A program made the position numbers and the translations under genes. A stretch of 34,143 nt of DNA, taken from Gammaproteobacteria bacterium. Lineage in GTDB: Bacteria > Pseudomonadota > Gammaproteobacteria > SZUA-229. The notes beneath the pieces were generated by a model. The model was given only the letters and a program-made list of their open reading frames with translations. It was not told the DNA's origin and did not search any database. Numbering within the stretch: the stretch's first letter is position 1; the number at the start of each line of letters is the position of its first letter. The DNA is taken from NCBI GenBank assembly GCA_041589615.1, contig JBFHVK010000003.1:1-34143 (forward strand), in the 5' to 3' direction. Below are positions 1,940 to 33,457 of the stretch, piece after piece.

Positions 1940-1968
1940 ATTCTTACACACACTTGAACAACTAGCAA
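1940..1968 (-). promoter_or_regulatory. Putative sigma70 promoter for the leftward accessory operon
   Basis: TTGCTA-N17-AAGAAT with an extended-10 TG, about 40 bp upstream of GTG 1902. Confidence 0.45.
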
Positions 1969-1992: not shown

Positions 1993-2297
1993 TTTCCCCG
2001 CTAGGGGCTTCAGCGGGGCGATTTCGGGGAACATTTCCCCGCGCTGGAGGCCGCACCACCACTGGGTTTTTTAATAAATATATATATATAGGGGTAATAT
2101 CATATATATATTATTATTTAGTATTATATTTGTTTGAATATTGGAACAGTGTTCCATATTTGCGCTGAGATTTATTTGCGCAGACATATACGTAAACAGG
2201 CTTCTCCGCCCCGCTTCCCCGCAAATCGAAGGAAACCAGTGGTGGACTGGGCTAGAGCGCGGGGAAGGTTTCCCCGCTGACTACCCCTCAGGGGAAA
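1993..2297. other. Putative replication origin: AT-rich core flanked by long imperfect inverted arms carrying TTCCCCG/CGGGGAA iteron-like motifs
   Basis: Arms 1993-2070 and 2231-2297 are inverted copies of each other. The core (2067-2142) is nearly all A/T and includes (TA)6. The site lies next to the DUF3987 helicase gene. Confidence 0.7.
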
Positions 2298-2398
2298 GTA
2301 AAAGCGGATTTTGGCTTGATTTGGGCGGATTGAAAGAGATTTGCGCCTGATTATCGCTTTATGATTGTTCCGTATTTGGAACGATAGAGGATGTACAC

Positions 2399-2423
2399 AA
2401 AAAAGCGCACCGGTTGGTACGCT
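2399..2423 (-). terminator. Rho-independent terminator downstream of the DUF3987 gene
   Basis: Minus strand AGCGTACC-AACC-GGTGCGCT-TTTTT, with one G-U pair. Confidence 0.75.
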
Positions 2424-2610: not shown

Positions 2611-4206
2611 TTACATCGTGATCTTCGGATTGATAAAAACACGATCATCATGAAACACACATAAACCCGCTTTCTCGCATGACGGCAGGAGAGCGTCTCT
2701 GAGGTGATCTGTGAGCTTAGGCTTACCTTTGAACACCTTGTGGTCTTTTATCGCTGAGCGGAGGCTCTGGAGCGTCAGAGAGCCTATTCCGCGCAGGTGG
2801 GGCTTCTTTTCTAGTTGTCGCTGAAAATAATCACGTAAACATGAGATTTCAGACATTTCTCCGGAATAGCCGAGCGAATCCACTGAGTAGATGTAAATTT
2901 TTATCAGGTCCTGGCATATCAGATAAGCATCCATGACTGTCTCCTGATCAATCACTTCGCTTTGACCGCCGCCGTCGCAGAACTCTTTAACAGCATGCAG
3001 CACGCAAGACATTTTCATGACCTGTTTGTCCATCTTGCCGACGGTTCCTCTGAGTAGTGAGTGTGAATATCGTCCGCCGTCCGCCAGGTTCGGCTCCTCA
3101 ATAGCCCGACTCATCATGATGTATTCCATGGCCTCATCACTGAATTTCAGTACCGTGTTTGCTCGATTGACTAGATTAAACACCAACTTCCGGTATCCCT
3201 CCTTCAGTTTCGGATCGATGCGCTGAAACGGTCGATCAAAGTCGCGCTTGCCCAGCATCGTCGGCTCTCTGAGTAGCAAAAAACGCTCATTCAGGCCGTT
3301 CGTGCGTTGGCTGCCGGAAGCTAAGATTGAGTCAATCACTTCATCTTGAGCGATTACAGCAATGCAGCCCTTGACCTGTCCTTGTAATGATTTACGAGTG
3401 ACTCGCCCGCCGGACATAAATTCCTCGTCAAACCCTTTGAGAATGATTTCAGCAGTCTTCTTCTTGTCGCTGTCGCCATAGCTAAGGCCGAGTAGTGTGT
3501 TGATTGCGGTAGCTTCGTCAGAGATTACTCTGAATGTGTTGTCGTGCTCCATAGCTCTGAGCTCTAGGCCTTCCGGAGTATCATCCGTCGATGGCCAGCC
3601 GTACAGCGGAAATTCTTTTAGCTCTTGGTGTTTGTTGTAAATGTCCTCTTCAAGTGATTCGATCTCGTTTTCAAGCGCGGCGCTGTCAAGTTCCTCATAA
3701 AGCGCGTCGATCTCTTTCTGAATGCGTTTTCGCTCTTTAGCATGCAGTTTCTCGCGCTCTTGGTAGCACTCTTGAACTGGATCAAGGAACGATGAGTTGA
3801 TTTTGGATTTGCCGGAGGACGGCGGCTGTGCACCAACGACGTAAAGGTTCACCGGTTTTGTATCGTCTGAATAGTATTCGTAGCGGAAGTTGTGGATCAT
3901 GGCAGCGGCTATGTTACCCAGCCCGTGGAGATACGCTGTATTGATCGGGAACTGTACCGAGTCGCAGATTGATTTTGTGAACTGAGTCAGGATGTCTTTA
4001 TTCTTTTCGGGATCGCATATGCTGATGTTTTTAAGAGCATCGGCCGCGCGCTCTTCGTCGATAATCTGCGGGGATGGCCACATATTGAGATCGCGCATGA
4101 CATGCGGGTTTGTCTCGATAGCTACCCTGGCAGCCGAAACTTTGCGAGCGGCGGCGTCTGCAAATATCTGATTAATGTTGTAAGTATCGTTAAACGGTTC
4201 ACTCAT
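2611..4206 (-). CDS. DUF3987/YfjI-family P-loop ATPase, putative replicative helicase or origin-binding protein
   Basis: Walker A (AQPPSSGKS), a coiled coil, Walker B (VISDEA), an Arg-finger-like NGLNERFL and a C-terminal helical domain. Confidence 0.8.
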   Translation of the reverse strand: MSEPFNDTYNINQIFADAAARKVSAARVAIETNPHVMRDLNMWPSPQIIDEERAADALKNISICDPEKNKDILTQFTKSICDSVQFPINTAYLHGLGNIAAAMIHNFRYEYYSDDTKPVNLYVVGAQPPSSGKSKINSSFLDPVQECYQEREKLHAKERKRIQKEIDALYEELDSAALENEIESLEEDIYNKHQELKEFPLYGWPSTDDTPEGLELRAMEHDNTFRVISDEATAINTLLGLSYGDSDKKKTAEIILKGFDEEFMSGGRVTRKSLQGQVKGCIAVIAQDEVIDSILASGSQRTNGLNERFLLLREPTMLGKRDFDRPFQRIDPKLKEGYRKLVFNLVNRANTVLKFSDEAMEYIMMSRAIEEPNLADGGRYSHSLLRGTVGKMDKQVMKMSCVLHAVKEFCDGGGQSEVIDQETVMDAYLICQDLIKIYIYSVDSLGYSGEMSEISCLRDYFQRQLEKKPHLRGIGSLTLQSLRSAIKDHKVFKGKPKLTDHLRDALLPSCEKAGLCVFHDDRVFINPKITM

Positions 4207-4261: not shown

Positions 4262-4302
4262 GTTTTCGTATCACTTATTACAGATTAACACGGGAATCAG
4301 GA

Positions 4303-4617
4303 ATGACAATAGACAATTTTACAGAAAAATCATCAGGCGATCTTAAAAAACAGTACCGTCCGCGCGTGCGACTAACTAAGAAACAAAAGGTGCAAGTTAA
4401 AAAAGAAACGGATCGTCTGTTTGAAGAGATCGGCACCCAGCAGTTGGCGTTATTATTGGATATGAAGCCGACTGCGCTAAATATGATGAAAGCGCGCGGG
4501 TATGTCGGTGGTGAAGCGGTGCTTAAGTTATGCAAAATCAAGGCAATTACTGACCGTGGGTTTACTCGTGAGAGTTTGCGTCCTGATGTGATTGCGTGGG
4601 ATGAGGAGCGGGTGTGA
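4303..4617 (+). CDS. Cro/YdaS-like HTH transcriptional regulator
   Basis: GTQQLALLLDMKPTALNMMKARG is HTH-like and the C-terminus has TRESLRPDV. Start moved to ATG 4303 because the longer ORF overlaps the helicase gene. Confidence 0.7.
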   Translation: MTIDNFTEKSSGDLKKQYRPRVRLTKKQKVQVKKETDRLFEEIGTQQLALLLDMKPTALNMMKARGYVGGEAVLKLCKIKAITDRGFTRESLRPDVIAWDEERV

Positions 4618-4739
4618 TGACCTCATCAAAAGAAAAGCGAGATGCGCTCAGAAAGGCCAGTAAAGCCATGGCAGCGGCAGAGCTTGCTATTAAGCGTGAA
4701 AGGACTGTAATGGAGTGGCATTCGGAGCAAACCAAATGA
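4617..4739 (+). CDS. 40 aa hypothetical protein (MTSSKEKRDALRK...)
   Basis: TGATG overlap upstream and ATGA overlap downstream. Below the ORF-track cutoff. Confidence 0.6.
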   Translation: MTSSKEKRDALRKASKAMAAAELAIKRERTVMEWHSEQTK

Positions 4740-5662
4740 TCAACTGGGACGACGTTTTGCCGCTAACTATTGGTCTATGGCCGGACATTCTGAAAACGGC
4801 TTGCGGCGTTCAGGATTCAGTGTTCAACGGAAAGCACCAGGCGTGCCCAAGCTGCGGCGGCAAAGATCGGTTCCGGTGGACTGATAACATTGACCGCATG
4901 GGCGATGGCGGCGCTATTTGTAATCAGTGTGGCTCGTCAAACGGCATGGGGTGGTTGATGCGCTTGTCTGGAATGGAGTTTCCAGAGGCGGTTAAAACTG
5001 TGTCTGATTATGTGAATTATATTCCAGTTGAGACGCGAGAAATCAAAAAGAAGGAGATTCAGAGTAAGTCAGCGGCTAAGTCGTTGAGTTACGTAGTGGA
5101 CGCCAGGGAGAAAGCATTGCCGATGTTGAAAATGGCCAAGCCTGCACCGGATGATTATGTTCCGACGGTATTCAAGCGTTACGGCATCATGCCGAGCAAT
5201 CTGATGATGCACGCAGTAGGTGAGCATGAATTTATCATCAATAGCGTGCGGAACGGCGCGGGCCGGATAATAAATGCGATGCTGATTTGTCCGGATACGG
5301 GTGATTACAATCATGCTACCAGCGACGGATTTTCTTGGACTGGCCGTACAGTGATTGGCGAAGACTCGGGAAGATTTATCTATCTGTGCTCTGGTTGGAT
5401 TCAGGGACATATATTGCACCGGATCACTCGTGCGCAAGTGTGGGTATGTTACGACACGTGCAACATCAATAATGTGCTACTGTCCGAGGCGGATCGCTCA
5501 AGACTTCGGGTGTTCTCTGATGGTCTGGATCGCGATACATTAACGGCTGCAAGTAATTACGATTTAGGTGTTTTAATGCCGGACGGCGACTCGCTGTTAC
5601 AGTCGCTAACGGTCCAGAAAAAAGTGTTTAATGCGGATGTTTTGTTGGGGGAGTTAGAGTGA
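4736..5662 (+). CDS. Primase-like protein with P4-alpha-type Zn ribbon and divergent TOPRIM region
   Basis: KHQACPSCGGKDRFR...GGAICNQCG. Start moved to the coupled ATG 4736. Confidence 0.8.
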   Translation: MINWDDVLPLTIGLWPDILKTACGVQDSVFNGKHQACPSCGGKDRFRWTDNIDRMGDGGAICNQCGSSNGMGWLMRLSGMEFPEAVKTVSDYVNYIPVETREIKKKEIQSKSAAKSLSYVVDAREKALPMLKMAKPAPDDYVPTVFKRYGIMPSNLMMHAVGEHEFIINSVRNGAGRIINAMLICPDTGDYNHATSDGFSWTGRTVIGEDSGRFIYLCSGWIQGHILHRITRAQVWVCYDTCNINNVLLSEADRSRLRVFSDGLDRDTLTAASNYDLGVLMPDGDSLLQSLTVQKKVFNADVLLGELE

Positions 5663-26220: not shown

Positions 26221-26739
26221 ATGGGATATAGCTCAATGCAAGCAAGAAAAGATTTTGATCACAATGAGCTATCATTCTTTTTTGATTATAACAAGGAAAC
26301 TGGATTGATAACATGGAAACATTCGGTAGGAAAAGCAAAGGAGGGCTCCATTGCTGGAAGCGTAAGCCAGACCGGATACAGAAAAATAACACTCAAAGGA
26401 AGAACGTTTCTGGCACACAGAATTGCCTGGTCAATGCATTATAAATCCCCACCGCCAGACGTAATAGATCACATCAACGGCAAGACAGATGATAATAGGA
26501 TAGAAAACCTAACAGATGGAACAAAATGCAGAAACCAAAGAAACCAAAAAAAAGCCCATTCCAGAAATATGTCAAGCAAGTTTCTTGGTGTGTCAAAGTT
26601 TAAAGGAAGATGGAGAGCAAAGATTTACTCAAAAGGAAAGTATGTATTCCTTGGGTATTTCAATACAGAAGACGAGGCAGCTCAAGCCTACAAGAAAGCT
26701 AAACTTGAGCTGCACGGCATAGACTTACTGCGAAATTAG
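26221..26739 (+). mobile_element. Free-standing HNH-AP2 homing endonuclease, antisense to the head operon
   Basis: AHRIAW, IDHINGKTDDNRIENL, and AP2-like GVS...WRAKI...LGYFNTEDEAAQAY. Confidence 0.9.
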
Positions 26740-29777: not shown

Positions 29778-31163
29778 TTAGAACCTCATTCTTATATCAA
29801 TGTTGGCTGTCATTTCAGGATTAGCAAGATGCGGGCACATGGCCATGATGAATGCGTCAGCCAGGTTGGGGGATGCAATTTCGCGCTTAGCCAGCTCTTG
29901 CTTTGTTTCAACCATATCAAGTCCGCGCTTACTGTACCGCACCCTGGGAGTAGATAACTCAGTCTTAAGCCGCTCAAGCAGTTTTCCCATACCTTCCGAG
30001 TCAATGCTAATCAAATCCTCGGCATCGTAATTGTGACCTTTGTTGATTGCATTATATGTGTTTCTGAATCTATCCGCTACTGAGCGCCATGCCTGGGCTT
30101 TTACATTCTCAAACTTCTCACCATTCTTTACCTTGGGGCTGTACTCCTCGTTCGGATTAACTACCGCGCCACCTGCATTGAACTTCCGGTATCTTGAGTT
30201 TATGCCATTACTTTTCAAAGTGGAACCAACACCAGCACCTACGCCAATGCAGTCATAAATCAGAGAACCATCATGGACAAAACTCCATGCCCTCATGGTT
30301 GATTCGGTAAGCTCATCCTCGCTTGCTTTCCACTCATCGACAACTGTAGCAACGGAGCCATTAGCGCCAATGATGGCATTCTTATCTTTGCCCGAGTCAG
30401 CAACATCATAACCAACAGTCCAGGCACCGAACATTTGGACATTAAGGTTTAAATGCGCATCGATGGCAGCCTCCACCCATGAGCGCTTGATAATAGCCTG
30501 ATCGTCGTCACTCTTAGGCACGCCAAGATAAACATGGTCATGCTCGTCCTTGTCCTCTTTGAGCATTTCCTCAATGTCAGACTTTGCTGTACTCGATAGA
30601 AACGGATTGTCTGGATAGTTAATCAGCCTAACGATTGAGTTTTCCGGTGGATTGACGATAAAGCGCTGATACACGAAGTCAGTAACAAGTTTCGGGTTAA
30701 AGCTGATCCAAATCTCCGACCCTTCTTTACGAATCGTTGGCTTCAGTATCTGCCATTGCTCAGCTGTGAGATTGTGTGCCTCTTCGATCCATAAGATGTC
30801 CGCGCCCTCGAAAGATTTAATTTCGTCTACGTTGCGCTCAATGCCGTAGAACACAAACTCAGAGCCGTTCTTGTGCTGAATATCTGTCGCTCTAACGTCA
30901 AATCCATCAAACCCAAAATTGCCTATTTGAGCACTGATCAGCGTATGAACGGACTCTTTAATCTTGTTCTGAAAGCGACGAACGCAAAGAAATCTTGTTT
31001 GATATTGGGATGCAATGCCAGCAGCCATGCCAGCGAATTCCCAGGACTTAGAAGAAGCTCGGCCACCGTACAAAACACGATGCCGGACTTTTATGAAGTT
31101 TTCTTCAGACGGGATTCCGTCTTTAAACCAGAAGTCAGCTAAATTAGGATTTAGACTCGCCAC
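29778..31163 (-). CDS. terL: Terminase large subunit (PBSX family)
   Basis: YGGRASSKS, WIEEA, PTIRKEGSEIW, GYDVAD, SPNLADA. Confidence 0.96.
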   Translation of the reverse strand: MASLNPNLADFWFKDGIPSEENFIKVRHRVLYGGRASSKSWEFAGMAAGIASQYQTRFLCVRRFQNKIKESVHTLISAQIGNFGFDGFDVRATDIQHKNGSEFVFYGIERNVDEIKSFEGADILWIEEAHNLTAEQWQILKPTIRKEGSEIWISFNPKLVTDFVYQRFIVNPPENSIVRLINYPDNPFLSSTAKSDIEEMLKEDKDEHDHVYLGVPKSDDDQAIIKRSWVEAAIDAHLNLNVQMFGAWTVGYDVADSGKDKNAIIGANGSVATVVDEWKASEDELTESTMRAWSFVHDGSLIYDCIGVGAGVGSTLKSNGINSRYRKFNAGGAVVNPNEEYSPKVKNGEKFENVKAQAWRSVADRFRNTYNAINKGHNYDAEDLISIDSEGMGKLLERLKTELSTPRVRYSKRGLDMVETKQELAKREIASPNLADAFIMAMCPHLANPEMTANIDIRMRF

Positions 31164-31563
31164 CTGGCTTGGTTCCGTATAGATTAGAGAATTTTGGTGT
31201 CATTGAGCCGTCAGAGCTTTGATGATCGATAATCTGCTTATCTAGTCCGCATAACTTAGCCTTGCCCATAGTTGCACTAATTGCAGCTGATGACTGCGGA
31301 GTCTCAGCAGAAAGCGCAGCCTGCCTGGCTTCTTCAAGCTCTTTAATTAAGCCTTCAACTGTAATCATATGTTTTTCCGATATAGAAGCCTTGTACTTAT
31401 CGATTTCACCGATTATCTCAGGTTTCTTCAAGTTCTCATTTGCTATTGAATAAGCGGTGGCCTCGCTGTAGCCCGCTTCTAATGCAGCTTGTGTGCCATT
31501 GAATCCGTTCGAACAATATGCAGAAACAAATAATTGCTGCTTTGTTGTCAGCTTATTACTCAT
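31144..31563 (-). CDS. terS: Terminase small subunit
   Basis: LTTKQQLF...NGTQAALEAGYS...ENLKKP. Confidence 0.93.
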   Translation of the reverse strand: MSNKLTTKQQLFVSAYCSNGFNGTQAALEAGYSEATAYSIANENLKKPEIIGEIDKYKASISEKHMITVEGLIKELEEARQAALSAETPQSSAAISATMGKAKLCGLDKQIIDHQSSDGSMTPKFSNLYGTKPGGESKS

Positions 31564-31727
31564 CACCCACCAAATTGCTCTTTCAGCTTCAGATACAATT
31601 TACGCTCAGCTTCCACGTGTTCCTCAGCAGTTTTAGATTGATGATGATGCTCGAAAGACTTATCCAGTCGCTCATCTTGAATGAGCTGTTTAGACAACCA
31701 ATCCACGTCAACCGTTGTTAGAAGCAT
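31563..31727 (-). CDS. 54 aa hypothetical protein (MLLTTVDVDWLS...)
   Basis: TGATG overlaps at both ends; AGAGGG RBS. Not in the ORF track. Confidence 0.65.
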   Translation of the reverse strand: MLLTTVDVDWLSKQLIQDERLDKSFEHHHQSKTAEEHVEAERKLYLKLKEQFGG

Positions 31728-31846
31728 CAGCCTACCCTCTTATTATCAGTGAATTTATTGTAGCACGCAATACAAAACCCGTCTCTAAGATTACCAGACC
31801 ACCTGCCGCAACCATCACAGTCGCCTTGTTTTTTAACTATAGTCAT
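31727..31846 (-). CDS. 39 aa Zn-finger microprotein (GDCDGCGRWSGNLRDGFCIAC)
   Basis: Two CxxC motifs; coupled stop/start. Not in the ORF track. Confidence 0.65.
   Translation of the reverse strand: MTIVKKQGDCDGCGRWSGNLRDGFCIACYNKFTDNKRVG
31742..31770 (-). promoter_or_regulatory. Putative sigma70 promoter upstream of the terminase genes
   Basis: TTGCGT-N17-GATAAT, the same pattern as at 28387-28415. Confidence 0.5.
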
Positions 31847-31982
31847 ACTCGTGCACCTTGTTTTTTGTTTTGTAGCACCGCTTACAAATCCAGCTTTCAC
31901 ACTTTGTGTAAGAATTGTAGCCGAAAATCTCCCATTTGTGGCCGGATACAGCGCATTTAATTTTTTTGACCAAGCGGATCAT
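31833..31982 (-). CDS. 49 aa DUF1660-like protein
   Basis: C...GHKW...CKRC. Start moved to the coupled ATG 31982. Confidence 0.65.
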   Translation of the reverse strand: MIRLVKKIKCAVSGHKWEIFGYNSYTKCESWICKRCYKTKNKVHEYDYS

Positions 31983-32101
31983 CCCGCCATCCCCCAGACA
32001 ACACCAACAACAACCCAAACGCCTACTGCAATTAGCAACCCAGCCGCAAAGCCGGATCGAGACTTCTTCTTCTCATCAATCACAACCTCAACCTCTTTCA
32101 T
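31979..32101 (-). CDS. 40 aa single-TM microprotein (MKEVEVVIDEKKKSRSGFAAGLLIAVGVW...)
   Basis: Open frame with an ATGA overlap downstream. Not in the ORF track. Confidence 0.55.
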   Translation of the reverse strand: MKEVEVVIDEKKKSRSGFAAGLLIAVGVWVVVGVVWGMAG

Positions 32102-32119
32102 TTTTAGTTACCCATTCAA

Positions 32120-32341
32120 TCAACCCTTCCAGTCCGGCAAAAGCGCCCAGCCATCTACCTGATACCACCAGAGCGTTAGCTCGTCGTCGTGGGCAAAATG
32201 ATAAGGCTCAAACCAATCCGGAGTTTCGTCTTCGCCATTCAGCATATAAGTAATATGCTGAACGACGCCGCCCGCCTTTAAAAGAACCGGCGCGCCATAA
32301 GGTGGCCTTTTCTCGTGAATCGACACAAACTCAAACACCAT
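32120..32341 (-). CDS. DUF551-like protein
   Basis: FVSIHEKRP...VLL...VDGWALLP. Confidence 0.7.
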   Translation of the reverse strand: MVFEFVSIHEKRPPYGAPVLLKAGGVVQHITYMLNGEDETPDWFEPYHFAHDDELTLWWYQVDGWALLPDWKG

Positions 32342-32343
32342 AA

Positions 32344-32484
32344 CTAAGATCCAGCCCCAGCCGCCAAGGCAGCACCGATAGAAAACAGCACAATAATAGC
32401 AAGCACATCCAAAGCGGCTTGTGTTTTTGTTTGCGTTTTGCCGTTGATGAAGCCTGGTATTTCGTGTTGCTGATTTTCTCTCAT
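32344..32484 (-). CDS. 46 aa single-TM protein
   Basis: ATG 32484 after AAGGA; hydrophobic C-terminus. Confidence 0.6.
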   Translation of the reverse strand: MRENQQHEIPGFINGKTQTKTQAALDVLAIIVLFSIGAALAAGAGS

Positions 32485-32543
32485 CTTACTTTCCTTCTTA
32501 ATAATTGCAGCACCAAGTTTAGCGCCATCTGGTTTTGACACAT
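32481..32543 (-). CDS. 20 aa micropeptide MCQNQMALNLVLQLLRRKVR
   Basis: TAATG overlap upstream and ATGA overlap downstream; fills the gap exactly. Confidence 0.4.
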   Translation of the reverse strand: MCQNQMALNLVLQLLRRKVR

Positions 32544-32806
32544 TAAAGTCCTTGAGACTCCAGGAAGTCCCAGTATTCACCCTCCGACATAACATTGACA
32601 CCACCATCACAAATCAAATCCTCAAGAAATAAGAAAAGATCATGGTCATTAAATTTAATAATTATCTGCTCCAACTGAGCACGGGTCGCACTTTTAACCA
32701 GCAGTACTCTTTCTGTTTTGGCCAGGTCTTTCACGTCATCACGAAAAAGATGGTAAAGATTTACATCTTTATTTTCTAGCATTTGATCAAGCTTGTTCAT
32801 TTCCAT
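32543..32806 (-). CDS. Hypothetical protein
   Basis: First gene after a promoter; 87 aa. Confidence 0.7.
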   Translation of the reverse strand: MEMNKLDQMLENKDVNLYHLFRDDVKDLAKTERVLLVKSATRAQLEQIIIKFNDHDLFLFLEDLICDGGVNVMSEGEYWDFLESQGL

Positions 32807-32834
32807 ATCCCCGTTCGCGTTGTCTATGGTTATA

Positions 32835-32871
32835 ACTATAACACTAACAAAAGATATTGCAATAGTCTTTT
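32835..32871 (-). promoter_or_regulatory. Putative promoter with overlapping operator-like palindrome
   Basis: TTGCAA-N16-TATAGT with extended TG. Dyad AAAAGA-TATTGCAATA-G-TCTTTT at 32849-32871. Confidence 0.65.
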
Positions 32872-32897
32872 GAAATATTTTTAGTTATTTTCCGGAT

Positions 32898-32922
32898 AAA
32901 AAAATACCCTCCGAAGAGGGTA
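32898..32922 (-). terminator. Rho-independent terminator after the holin-like gene
   Basis: TACCCTC-TTCG-GAGGGTA-TTTTTTT. Confidence 0.88.
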
Positions 32923-33028
32923 AAAGCGTTCGAAAAAGGAATATGCGGCTTCAGCATAATGCCAAGGATGAGGGTGTAATTTGACGCATTACTACGAGAC
33001 TCGTATCACCACCTTATGGATAGAGTGA

Positions 33029-33457
33029 TTACTGCTTACTGTCGGGTATTTCCGGTTTGCGATTTAATTGTAGCTCAACATCATCAAGGGTTGCAAACTT
33101 ACTAAGAAATTCTTTTGTGATTGGGCCGTCTGCGGATTTATTCAGATCCAGCAATCGCTCGGCCATTCGAATTTTATGCTCTTGATCTCTGCGCCGCTCT
33201 TCTCTGTCTTTTCTCTGTTCATCGCGCGCCCTGCGCTGTTCGTCTCGGTCTTTGCGCTGCTTTTCGCACCACTTGAAATAATGATTACCAACGAACGTAA
33301 GGATACATATAACCAGCGTAATCGCCCAAGCATAAGTCTGAATACTCGTCATCAAATCAACAAACGAAAAACCCACTGTGGCGGCACCGTTCGTGTAAAT
33401 CACCATAGGCGCGTTATTCGTCACGACTTCTTTTATGTGCTCCAACCTTTCGGGCAT
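33029..33457 (-). CDS. Holin-like protein (HP1 / phage 21 S-like) with long charged tail
   Basis: TM segment ending LTFVGNHYFK, followed by an R/E/D-rich helix. Confidence 0.6.
   Translation of the reverse strand: MPERLEHIKEVVTNNAPMVIYTNGAATVGFSFVDLMTSIQTYAWAITLVICILTFVGNHYFKWCEKQRKDRDEQRRARDEQRKDREERRRDQEHKIRMAERLLDLNKSADGPITKEFLSKFATLDDVELQLNRKPEIPDSKQ

Follow-up and report, generated by a model that had tools for sequence, protein, structure and literature searches.

Does the gene-free stretch at positions 1903-2610 (708 bp) of contig JBFHVK010000003.1 house the point from which a phage starts to replicate its DNA? The window, meaning the whole 34,143-nt stretch of DNA that was analysed, is one entire contig of a fragmented gammaproteobacterial bin (638 contigs, 3.29 Mb); it encodes a siphophage genome, and its source is an uncultured marine T1-like siphophage. 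The gene-free stretch is flanked by a leftward operon, whose first gene starts at 1902, and by the 3' end of a DUF3987 helicase gene, and it houses an element of about 300 bp in which two mirror-image arms surround an AT-rich core. A sequence-only reading had proposed a symmetric origin for bidirectional loading of the DUF3987 ATPase. That proposal holds in part, as the element is conserved and the ATPase is MCM-like, but the arms do not consist of a single class of initiator sites. The element is read here, with a probability of roughly 0.55, as a lytic replication origin of the iteron type with embedded packaging-recognition boxes; it is read as an origin because its anatomy matches that of the origins of Staphylococcus aureus pathogenicity islands (SaPIs).

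Anatomy of the mirror-image element

The arms are imperfect inverted repeats on either side of the AT core (Table 1). A repeat search paired 2025-2068 with 2233-2276 (44 nt, 77% complementary) and 1993-2018 with 2272-2297 (26 nt, 73%), and when the left arm was aligned, with gaps, to the reverse-complemented right arm, 54 of 79 columns were identical and the score was 74. Shuffled controls (n=2000) scored 24.9 on average (sd 5.5) and 44 at most, and the inverted arms are far beyond chance. In both arms TTCCCCGCGCT is separated by 10 bases, which differ between the arms, from CCACCACTGG, and both units point towards the core; measured from start to start, the inner box and the innermost TTCCCCGCGCT are 21 bp apart in each arm. 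Mirror-image arms with conserved boxes, a 10-bp spacing and differing spacers had been described from the sequence alone, and the description agrees with what is found here. The same applies to the twelve G4/C4 runs reported in about 300 bp: 12 of the 66 such runs of the window fall within one 305-bp stretch starting at 1987. Six of the seven TTCCCCG/CGGGGAA words of the window are located inside 1994-2276, three of them to the left and three to the right of the AT core, and the inner box, CCACCACTGG or CCAGTGGTGG according to strand, is found in the window only at 2056 and 2236.

At a G+C content of 12.5%, the AT core is less stable than any other 80 bp of the 34-kb contig, with a stability of −77.0 kcal/mol compared with a contig mean of −109.6 (sd 5.7) and a next-lowest window of −87.5. 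Runs of (TA)n with at least four units are confined to this core within the contig. The A/T tract with (TA)6, the dyad at 2142-2156 and the two box copies that follow it were all recognised earlier and are all present; the box, TATTTGCGC, occurs in the window only at 2157 and 2173, and the word (T)ATTTGCGC is found at 2158, 2174 and 2339. Further TTCCCCGC/CCCCGC boxes are located at 2205-2223, outside the arms as first drawn. The repeats on the helicase side of the arms resemble a GATTT-rich stretch at the assigned packaging (pac) end of phage TLS and may, rather tentatively, be part of a packaging-start region. As a separate observation, a second GTTCC…GGAAC dyad (TGTTCCGTATTTGGAAC) is present at 2366-2383, just ahead of the helicase terminator, and its first 13 bases repeat positions 2150-2162 (12 of 13 identical).

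The element is unique in the material searched. In the 3.29-Mb bin no second copy of the 401-bp stretch 1950-2350 was detected, and TTCCCCGCGCT was found only in the two arms. Within the window, the other AT-poor, ORF-poor stretch (31566-33029) showed no second copy of the module, and no further box cluster was detected. A blastn search of 1700-2700 against 50,697 phage records gave no match, and Rfam returned no family at E <= 1, with only a sub-threshold match to a small nucleolar RNA at 2441-2498 (18.1 bits compared with a gathering score of 38). The contigs of three public runs showed no differences when compared over 1900-2700. Two flanking signals had earlier been thought to keep the element free of transcription, and both need correction. 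The terminator at 2399-2423 lies on the minus strand, from 2423 to 2404, and ends the helicase gene; the supposed outward promoter at 1940-1968 agrees with about 8 of 12 consensus positions and is absent from the promoter scan, which lists a minus-strand site within the AT core instead.

Table 1. Coordinates, strands and contents of the element and of related features of the window
Feature	Position	Strand	Content or basis
Left arm	1993-2068		TTTCCCCGCT (1993), AGGGG, TCAGCGGGGCG, 17-bp dyad CGGGGAA-CAT-TTCCCCG (2025-2041), N10, CCACCACTGG
Inner box, candidate small-terminase recognition box	2056-2065	-	CCACCACTGG (reverse of CCAGTGGTGG)
AT core, proposed unwinding element	2067-2146		(AT)6 at 2078, (AT)5 at 2102
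Dyad and second box class	2142-2181		TGGAACAGTGTTCCA (2142-2156), then TATTTGCGC twice (2157, 2173)
Extra boxes beyond the arms first described	2205-2227	+	CGCCCCGCT, TTCCCCGCA, CGCAAATCG
Right arm	2233-2297		CCAGTGGTGG (2236-2245), N10, AGCGCGGGGAA, 17-bp dyad CGGGGAA-GGT-TTCCCCG (2260-2276), CCCCGCTGA, CCCCT, GGGGAAA
Repeats on helicase side of arms	2304-2346	+	Three of GATTT(T/G/-)GGC type
Promoter-like site inside AT core	2138-2110	-	Promoter scan
Weak candidate promoter for leftward genes (1902 down to 200)	1940-1968	-	Read by eye; absent from promoter scan
Intrinsic terminator of helicase gene	2404-2423	-	
DUF3987/MCM-like AAA+ helicase, proposed initiator	2611-4206	-	Pfam PF13148, PHROG 2373 'DNA helicase'
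Cro/YdaS-like small helix-turn-helix (HTH) protein, head of primase operon	4303-4617	+	Sub-threshold Pfam YdaS match, E 0.045
DnaG-type primase with zinc ribbon	4715-5662	+	
Replication module: Cro-like protein, primase, superfamily 2 (SF2) helicase, exonuclease VIII, SSB	4.3-12.1 kb	+	
Structural and packaging module	12.2-31.6 kb	-	
Small terminase subunit, proposed reader of CCAGTGGTGG boxes	31144-31566	-	PHROG 51

Conservation of the layout and co-variation of the boxes

The earlier expectation that relatives would show the same architecture with different box words is borne out by the homologous gene-free locus, termed the hub below, of 13 relatives. All 13 exhibit the same plan, in which a very AT-rich core, as a rule containing (TA)n and in some cases a short tandem repeat, is flanked on both sides by a short word in both orientations. 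Eleven hubs were inspected directly (STGO-35-1, TW1, Taid, D93, XCL1123, AsC4_1, Avpx2, IMG/VR L001, T1, TLS and MSK) and two, L007 and Skenny, were scanned by script only. The script looked for a G/C-containing 7-mer present at least three times within 230 bp of the AT minimum and found one in 12 of 16 loci; two of the four failures were contigs that end short of the hub. The box word differs in almost every lineage: TTCCCCACG in STGO-35-1, GTGGGGAA in Taid, TACCCCCA in D93, CCCGCCCCA in XCL1123, CATCCCC or ATCTCCCC in AsC4_1, ACCCGTC in L001 and L007, ATCTTACAC in TW1, CGATTAAC in T1, GTTCACG or CGTGAAC in TLS, GTAGGAA in MSK and TGCGCAA in Skenny. A scan of viral contigs for the pattern CGGGGAANNNTTCCCCG was discarded, as the pattern is too short for specificity and each of its 120 loci contained one chance palindrome; none of these loci carried a box cluster of more than four words, CAGTGGTGG or a helicase relative.

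Gene order around the hub is also conserved, with terL, terS and small genes reading one way and a small open reading frame (ORF), the helicase, primase and SF2 helicase genes and exonuclease VIII reading the other way. Relative to the co-directional order of small ORF, helicase and primase in its closest relatives, the window differs only in that the helicase gene is inverted. The hub therefore adjoins the 3' end of this gene, which is transcribed towards the hub and away from the primase operon. In the majority of relatives the hub lies on the upstream side of the helicase operon, at distances of up to about 4 kb (in Drexlerviridae proper, about 4 kb from the gene), and a position beside the helicase gene is not a rule of the family. 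These comparisons favour a conserved cis-acting element that would work with the replication module.

Two side observations concern the hubs of individual relatives. The record of Taid opens inside the AT core, and its annotated first coding sequence (1-153), which runs across four GTGGGGAA/TTCCCCAC boxes in the right arm of the Taid hub, is probably not a real gene. At the edge of the hub on the terS side, a 160-nt stretch is near-identical in AsC4_1 and Avpx2 (L012 2095-2125 and L141, aligned columns 40-160), with the rest of the hub diverged. This stretch, within which a CCACC…GGTGG hairpin is found, may represent a terminator or a small RNA.

The product of the helicase gene matches PF13148 with an E-value of 3e-33 (115.9 bits, compared with a cut-off of 27). 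Its best relatives are found in T1-like phages of Vibrio, Pseudoalteromonas, Pectobacterium, Aeromonas and enterobacteria (identity of at most 41%; 1165 phage records). Relatives were detected at one locus in viral contigs (42%) and at four loci in metagenome contigs, three of them at 40-42% and one a weak partial match of 29% over 115 residues, with none in genome contigs, and a protein search yielded two homologues at 50-52% identity. An AlphaFold 2 model built from 30 homologues reached a predicted local distance difference test score of 89.4. Residues 67-444 of the model match MCM ATPase domains: MCM chains take the first 11 places in the VIA search (Z 13.8-16.2 over 255-277 aligned residues), and the Foldseek list is likewise led by MCM subunits. 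Weaker matches, over residues 75-531, are to two self-loading helicases, namely Cch (Z 9.1, with 293 residues aligned) and the SaPI5 primase-helicase (Z 7.5, with 243). For residues 444-531 the match is to a small domain in the JetABC complex (Z 8.8, root-mean-square deviation 2.8 A, 79 residues), which we take to be a winged helix, and the C-terminus is modelled as a helix-helix-helix-hairpin at 450-525. In line with a conserved P-loop, residues Q127, P128, K133 and S134 are invariant across the 30 homologues, and a sequence profile search of the PDB gave no matches at E <= 1. As modelled, the DUF3987 protein belongs with the MCM-like AAA+ ATPases and carries a winged helix at its C-terminus (about 444-531). 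This agrees with Kazlauskas et al. (PMC4889955), by whom DUF3987 proteins are classed as MCM-related replicative helicases with a C-terminal winged HTH; one member is a proven helicase according to PMC11724360.

The first of two co-variations links the main boxes to the replication module. The box GTGGGGAA is used by both Taid and STGO-35-1, and their hubs contain 7 of the 7 genome copies in Taid and 5 of the 6 in STGO-35-1. At E <= 1e-5 these two phages have seven proteins in common: SSB (62%), the DUF3987 helicase (48.7%), exonuclease VIII, the SF2 helicase, the primase, a small neighbour of the SF2 helicase, and a spanin; what the pair has in common is thus limited to replication, recombination and lysis. 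At the same threshold no packaging or structural protein is common to both, and their small terminases (TerS) gave no BLAST match. The ratio of C-terminal to core identity of the helicase is 0.91 for this pair, compared with 0.51-0.75 in five pairs with different boxes, and a stretch with 11 of 15 positions identical within the winged helix is found only in Taid and STGO-35-1. These observations suggest that the G4/C4 boxes and the replication module move together between phages.

The second co-variation concerns the inner boxes. Between the window and Aeromonas phage AsC4_1 the G boxes differ and the helicases are only 38% identical. Their TerS proteins are 62% identical, with no match at E <= 1e-5 for the adjacent TerL and portal proteins, and it appears that terS alone was exchanged. 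In both genomes CAGTGGTGG occurs exactly twice and only in the hub, the match extending by eye to 16 of 19 positions, and Avpx2, a relative of AsC4_1, retains CA(A/G)TGGTGG twice in its hub. The inner-box word is common only to phages with TerS proteins that are 62-64% identical, and it is not enriched in the 3.29-Mb bin (12 copies, compared with 13 for a reversed control). The pattern suggests that the inner CCAGTGGTGG boxes travel with terS rather than with the helicase. The idea that the boxes co-vary with the helicase may thus fit the Taid/STGO-35-1 pair and does not fit the inner CCACCACTGG boxes, which follow the small terminase.

From the anatomy, its conservation and the two co-variations, all of which are observed, we infer steps of binding, melting, loading and cutting. 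The G4/C4 iterons (core TTCCCCGC), which number about 8-10 and are divided equally between the two sides and in both orientations, would be bound by a protein of the replication module, most likely by the MCM-like DUF3987 helicase through its C-terminal winged helix and less likely by another protein of that module. Assembly on both arms would melt the 80-bp AT/(TA)n core, two helicase rings would load outward, and the neighbouring primase and the host polymerase would then carry out synthesis. The two CCAGTGGTGG boxes, which are interleaved at the inner edges of the arms two helical turns from the innermost iteron, are most likely small-terminase sites and would mark recognition for headful packaging, so that origin and pac would share one hub.

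A candidate origin and its alternatives

As a kind of element, an iteron origin of an initiator-helicase is familiar. According to PMC9371898, SaPI origins are located just downstream of rep and contain 6-12 iterons that are split by a central AT-rich region, with at least two iterons per side in opposite directions, read by the winged helix of Rep. SaPI Rep/Pri-Rep and SCCmec Cch resemble the system proposed here in the split iterons, the AT centre, the C-terminal winged-helix reader and the lack of a separate loader. The window differs from the SaPIs in that its ATPase is much closer to MCM, its host element is a T1-like phage of virulent type rather than a satellite, a second and terminase-linked class of boxes is interleaved, and in most relatives the hub precedes the helicase operon instead of following the gene.

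More distant parallels exist as well. In satellite phage P4, the alpha protein, a superfamily 3 (SF3) helicase fused to a primase, is an initiator-helicase whose C-terminal winged-helix domain binds short iterons, which are divided between ori and the distant crr; the window shares with P4 the idea of winged-helix iteron binding by an initiator-helicase, whereas its iterons are mirrored about one AT core. Inverted origin recognition boxes of archaea and the core origin of SV40 present mirror-image initiator sites that flank AT-rich DNA for head-to-head rings of MCM or SF3 type. In archaea, Orc1/Cdc6 loads MCM; the window has no recognisable gene for a separate initiator, and loading of the helicase by itself would have to be assumed. 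For packaging, P1 pac and SPP1 pacL/pacC/pacR consist of short protein-binding repeats around a central region with a link to the small terminase, and they are asymmetric and located in or beside the terminase genes. In contrast, terS of the window is at least 4.6 kb from the element, and the main repeats follow the replication module.

A further comparison is with the hub of T1, TLS, Rtp and MSK, which occupies the same syntenic position between the operons of the terS side and the helicase side and has the same AT/(TA)n core with flanking repeats; it differs in that its box words are unrelated, in that the helicase gene is inverted in the window, and in that print treats the T1-like hub only as the place of pac. 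The T1 record begins with an annotated terminal repeat (from base 1), the TLS record begins at AGATTT, which its authors assigned as pac after restriction mapping, and the packaging start of MSK by PhageTerm is 36,862. All three points fall in the homologous hub, on its helicase side and 130-230 bp from the AT core. The hub is therefore known in print as a pac region, and part of the element in the window is therefore probably related to packaging. A packaging site had been listed among the outcomes that would count against an origin at this locus, and in part that is what these mapped starts indicate. The mapping suggests that a combined origin and pac hub may be general in T1-like phages.

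Several points weigh against an origin with embedded packaging boxes. The mapping in T1 and TLS is too coarse to separate pac from the AT core, and according to one paper the pac site of T1 was formerly predicted to involve ATATA repeats. Each of the two co-variations, of boxes with helicase and of boxes with TerS, rests on one lineage pair. The segment shared by the Taid and STGO-35-1 helicases is not the canonical third helix of the winged helix, and helicases that are 51-65% identical (TW1/XCL1123/L001 and T1/TLS/Skenny) have different boxes. Phage ES18, with a TerS that is 48% identical, has no CAGTGGTGG-type word near terS. The cumulative GC skew has its minimum at 1951-2050, but this is confounded by gene orientation. 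The two 17-bp dyads resemble operators for a dimeric HTH protein, and a Cro/YdaS-like gene is located 2 kb away. Finally, the sole characterised DUF3987 helicase unwinds 5' to 3', and PMC11724360 reports no origin binding for it.

One alternative is that the element is an origin and nothing else, all box classes including CCAGTGGTGG serving replication, with packaging starting elsewhere, for instance at the GATTT repeats at 2304-2346 or near terS. The strict mirror symmetry and the fixed 21-bp offset between iteron and CCAGTGGTGG suit bidirectional loading better than one-directional packaging, ES18 lacks the inner-box word despite its related TerS, and the packaging ends of T1, TLS and MSK are located beside the AT core and not within it. 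It is nevertheless considered unlikely that replication accounts for everything, as CAGTGGTGG is common only to the phages that share TerS, between which the helicase is merely 38% identical and the G boxes differ.

The converse, a pac region whose terminase-binding repeats flank a region of cleavage or bending and an origin that is located elsewhere, ranks below this in our estimate. It would account for the packaging starts in the homologous hub, for the co-variation of CCAGTGGTGG with TerS and for the older ATATA prediction, but the main G boxes are identical in Taid and STGO-35-1, which have unrelated TerS proteins and related replication genes. The mapped ends lie beside the core, the extreme instability of the duplex and the mirror symmetry are features of origins, and no alternative cluster of iterons and AT-rich DNA was seen in the examined parts of the window.

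Lower again is the possibility that the locus is a transcriptional control region, in which the 17-bp dyads CGGGGAA-N3-TTCCCCG would be operators for the Cro/YdaS-like regulator of early promoters. An operator-sized dyad is indeed present twice, the hub of the relatives sits between divergent early operons, promoter-like sites occur in or beside the element, and a gene for such a regulator is present at 4303-4617. In the window, however, the helicase gene runs towards the hub and has its own terminator, so that no transcription leads rightward out of the hub, and yet the right arm is fully retained. At E <= 1e-5 no small regulator is common to Taid and STGO-35-1, although they use the same box, and the window and D93 share the Cro-like protein (39%) but differ in their boxes.

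That the arms are ends of a miniature inverted-repeat transposable element or another mobile element, as their imperfect terminal-type inverted repeats of about 70 bp around a short non-coding core might suggest, is very improbable given the single copy in the bin, the lack of a target-site duplication at 1993/2297, the lack of a blastn match among phages, and the unrelated sequence with the same architecture at the same position in relatives.

For the preferred reading, an origin with embedded packaging boxes, the novelty lies in the MCM-like DUF3987 helicase, in the interleaved terminase-linked boxes, and in a T1-like group that has no origin in print within the literature searched. T1 is a classic T phage, yet papers on its relatives report that an origin was not found: the SU57 paper found none, and the TLS paper found no iterons anywhere in the TLS genome. 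The absence of an origin description for the T1-like group refers to a literature search that left out the genome papers of Rtp (Wietzorrek 2006) and T1 (Roberts 2004), either of which possibly describes the hub. The locus offers a candidate SaPI-type origin read by an MCM-like DUF3987 helicase, with T1, TLS, STGO-35-1 and Taid as culturable relatives. If the reading is true, the helicases of Taid and STGO-35-1 should bind each other's GTGGGGAA boxes, and the small terminases of the window and of AsC4_1 should bind CCAGTGGTGG. It would also provide a bacterial-virus model for self-loading rings of MCM type, and cassettes of origin and pac for the engineering of T1-like phages. If the element is merely a pac or control region, the finding is an ordinary one. 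A further extension, which appears doubtful, is that initiation of replication and of packaging are interlocked on one 300-bp element, with opposed self-loaded MCM-like rings and TerS boxes on the same helix face acting by mutual exclusion or recruitment as a built-in switch from replication to packaging, the terminase box being swapped with terS and the iterons with the helicase, independently of each other.

Genome context and minor features

A 36,841-nt contig from one public run spans the whole window and adds about 1.9 kb before base 1 and about 0.8 kb after 34143; as it reaches past both ends, the window is an incomplete genome. A terminal repeat was not detected at either end of the window (1 and 34143), and no integrase, protelomerase or partition genes turned up among the 33 ORFs in a general scan. 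The right arm ends 313 nt past the stop codon of the helicase gene.

The small gene at 4303-4617 is the conserved neighbour of the helicase gene: its product is 39% identical (E 2e-20) to the small ORF immediately upstream of the helicase in Vibrio phage D93. A minus-strand ORF at 4278-4541 was considered as the counterpart of the small ORF that precedes the helicase in relatives and was rejected, as it showed no similarity. The Cro/YdaS-like protein ends in GFTRESLRPDV, and in the ORF list its gene is part of a longer frame of 171 aa that starts at 4102 and overlaps the start of the helicase gene.

Two further features are located away from the hub. Imperfect tandem repeats (periods 12, 33, 45 and 57; CCCTAGC nine times) are present at 639-837 inside a minus-strand ORF (568-1236), where they give the encoded protein, a member of PHROG 18326 with no assigned function, an alanine/aspartate-rich repeat (…ARDAVLDAARDARDAVLAA…). 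Within the block of head genes and beside the major capsid gene, an HNH endonuclease gene (26221-26739, plus strand) is encoded on the opposite strand and is probably a free-standing homing endonuclease.

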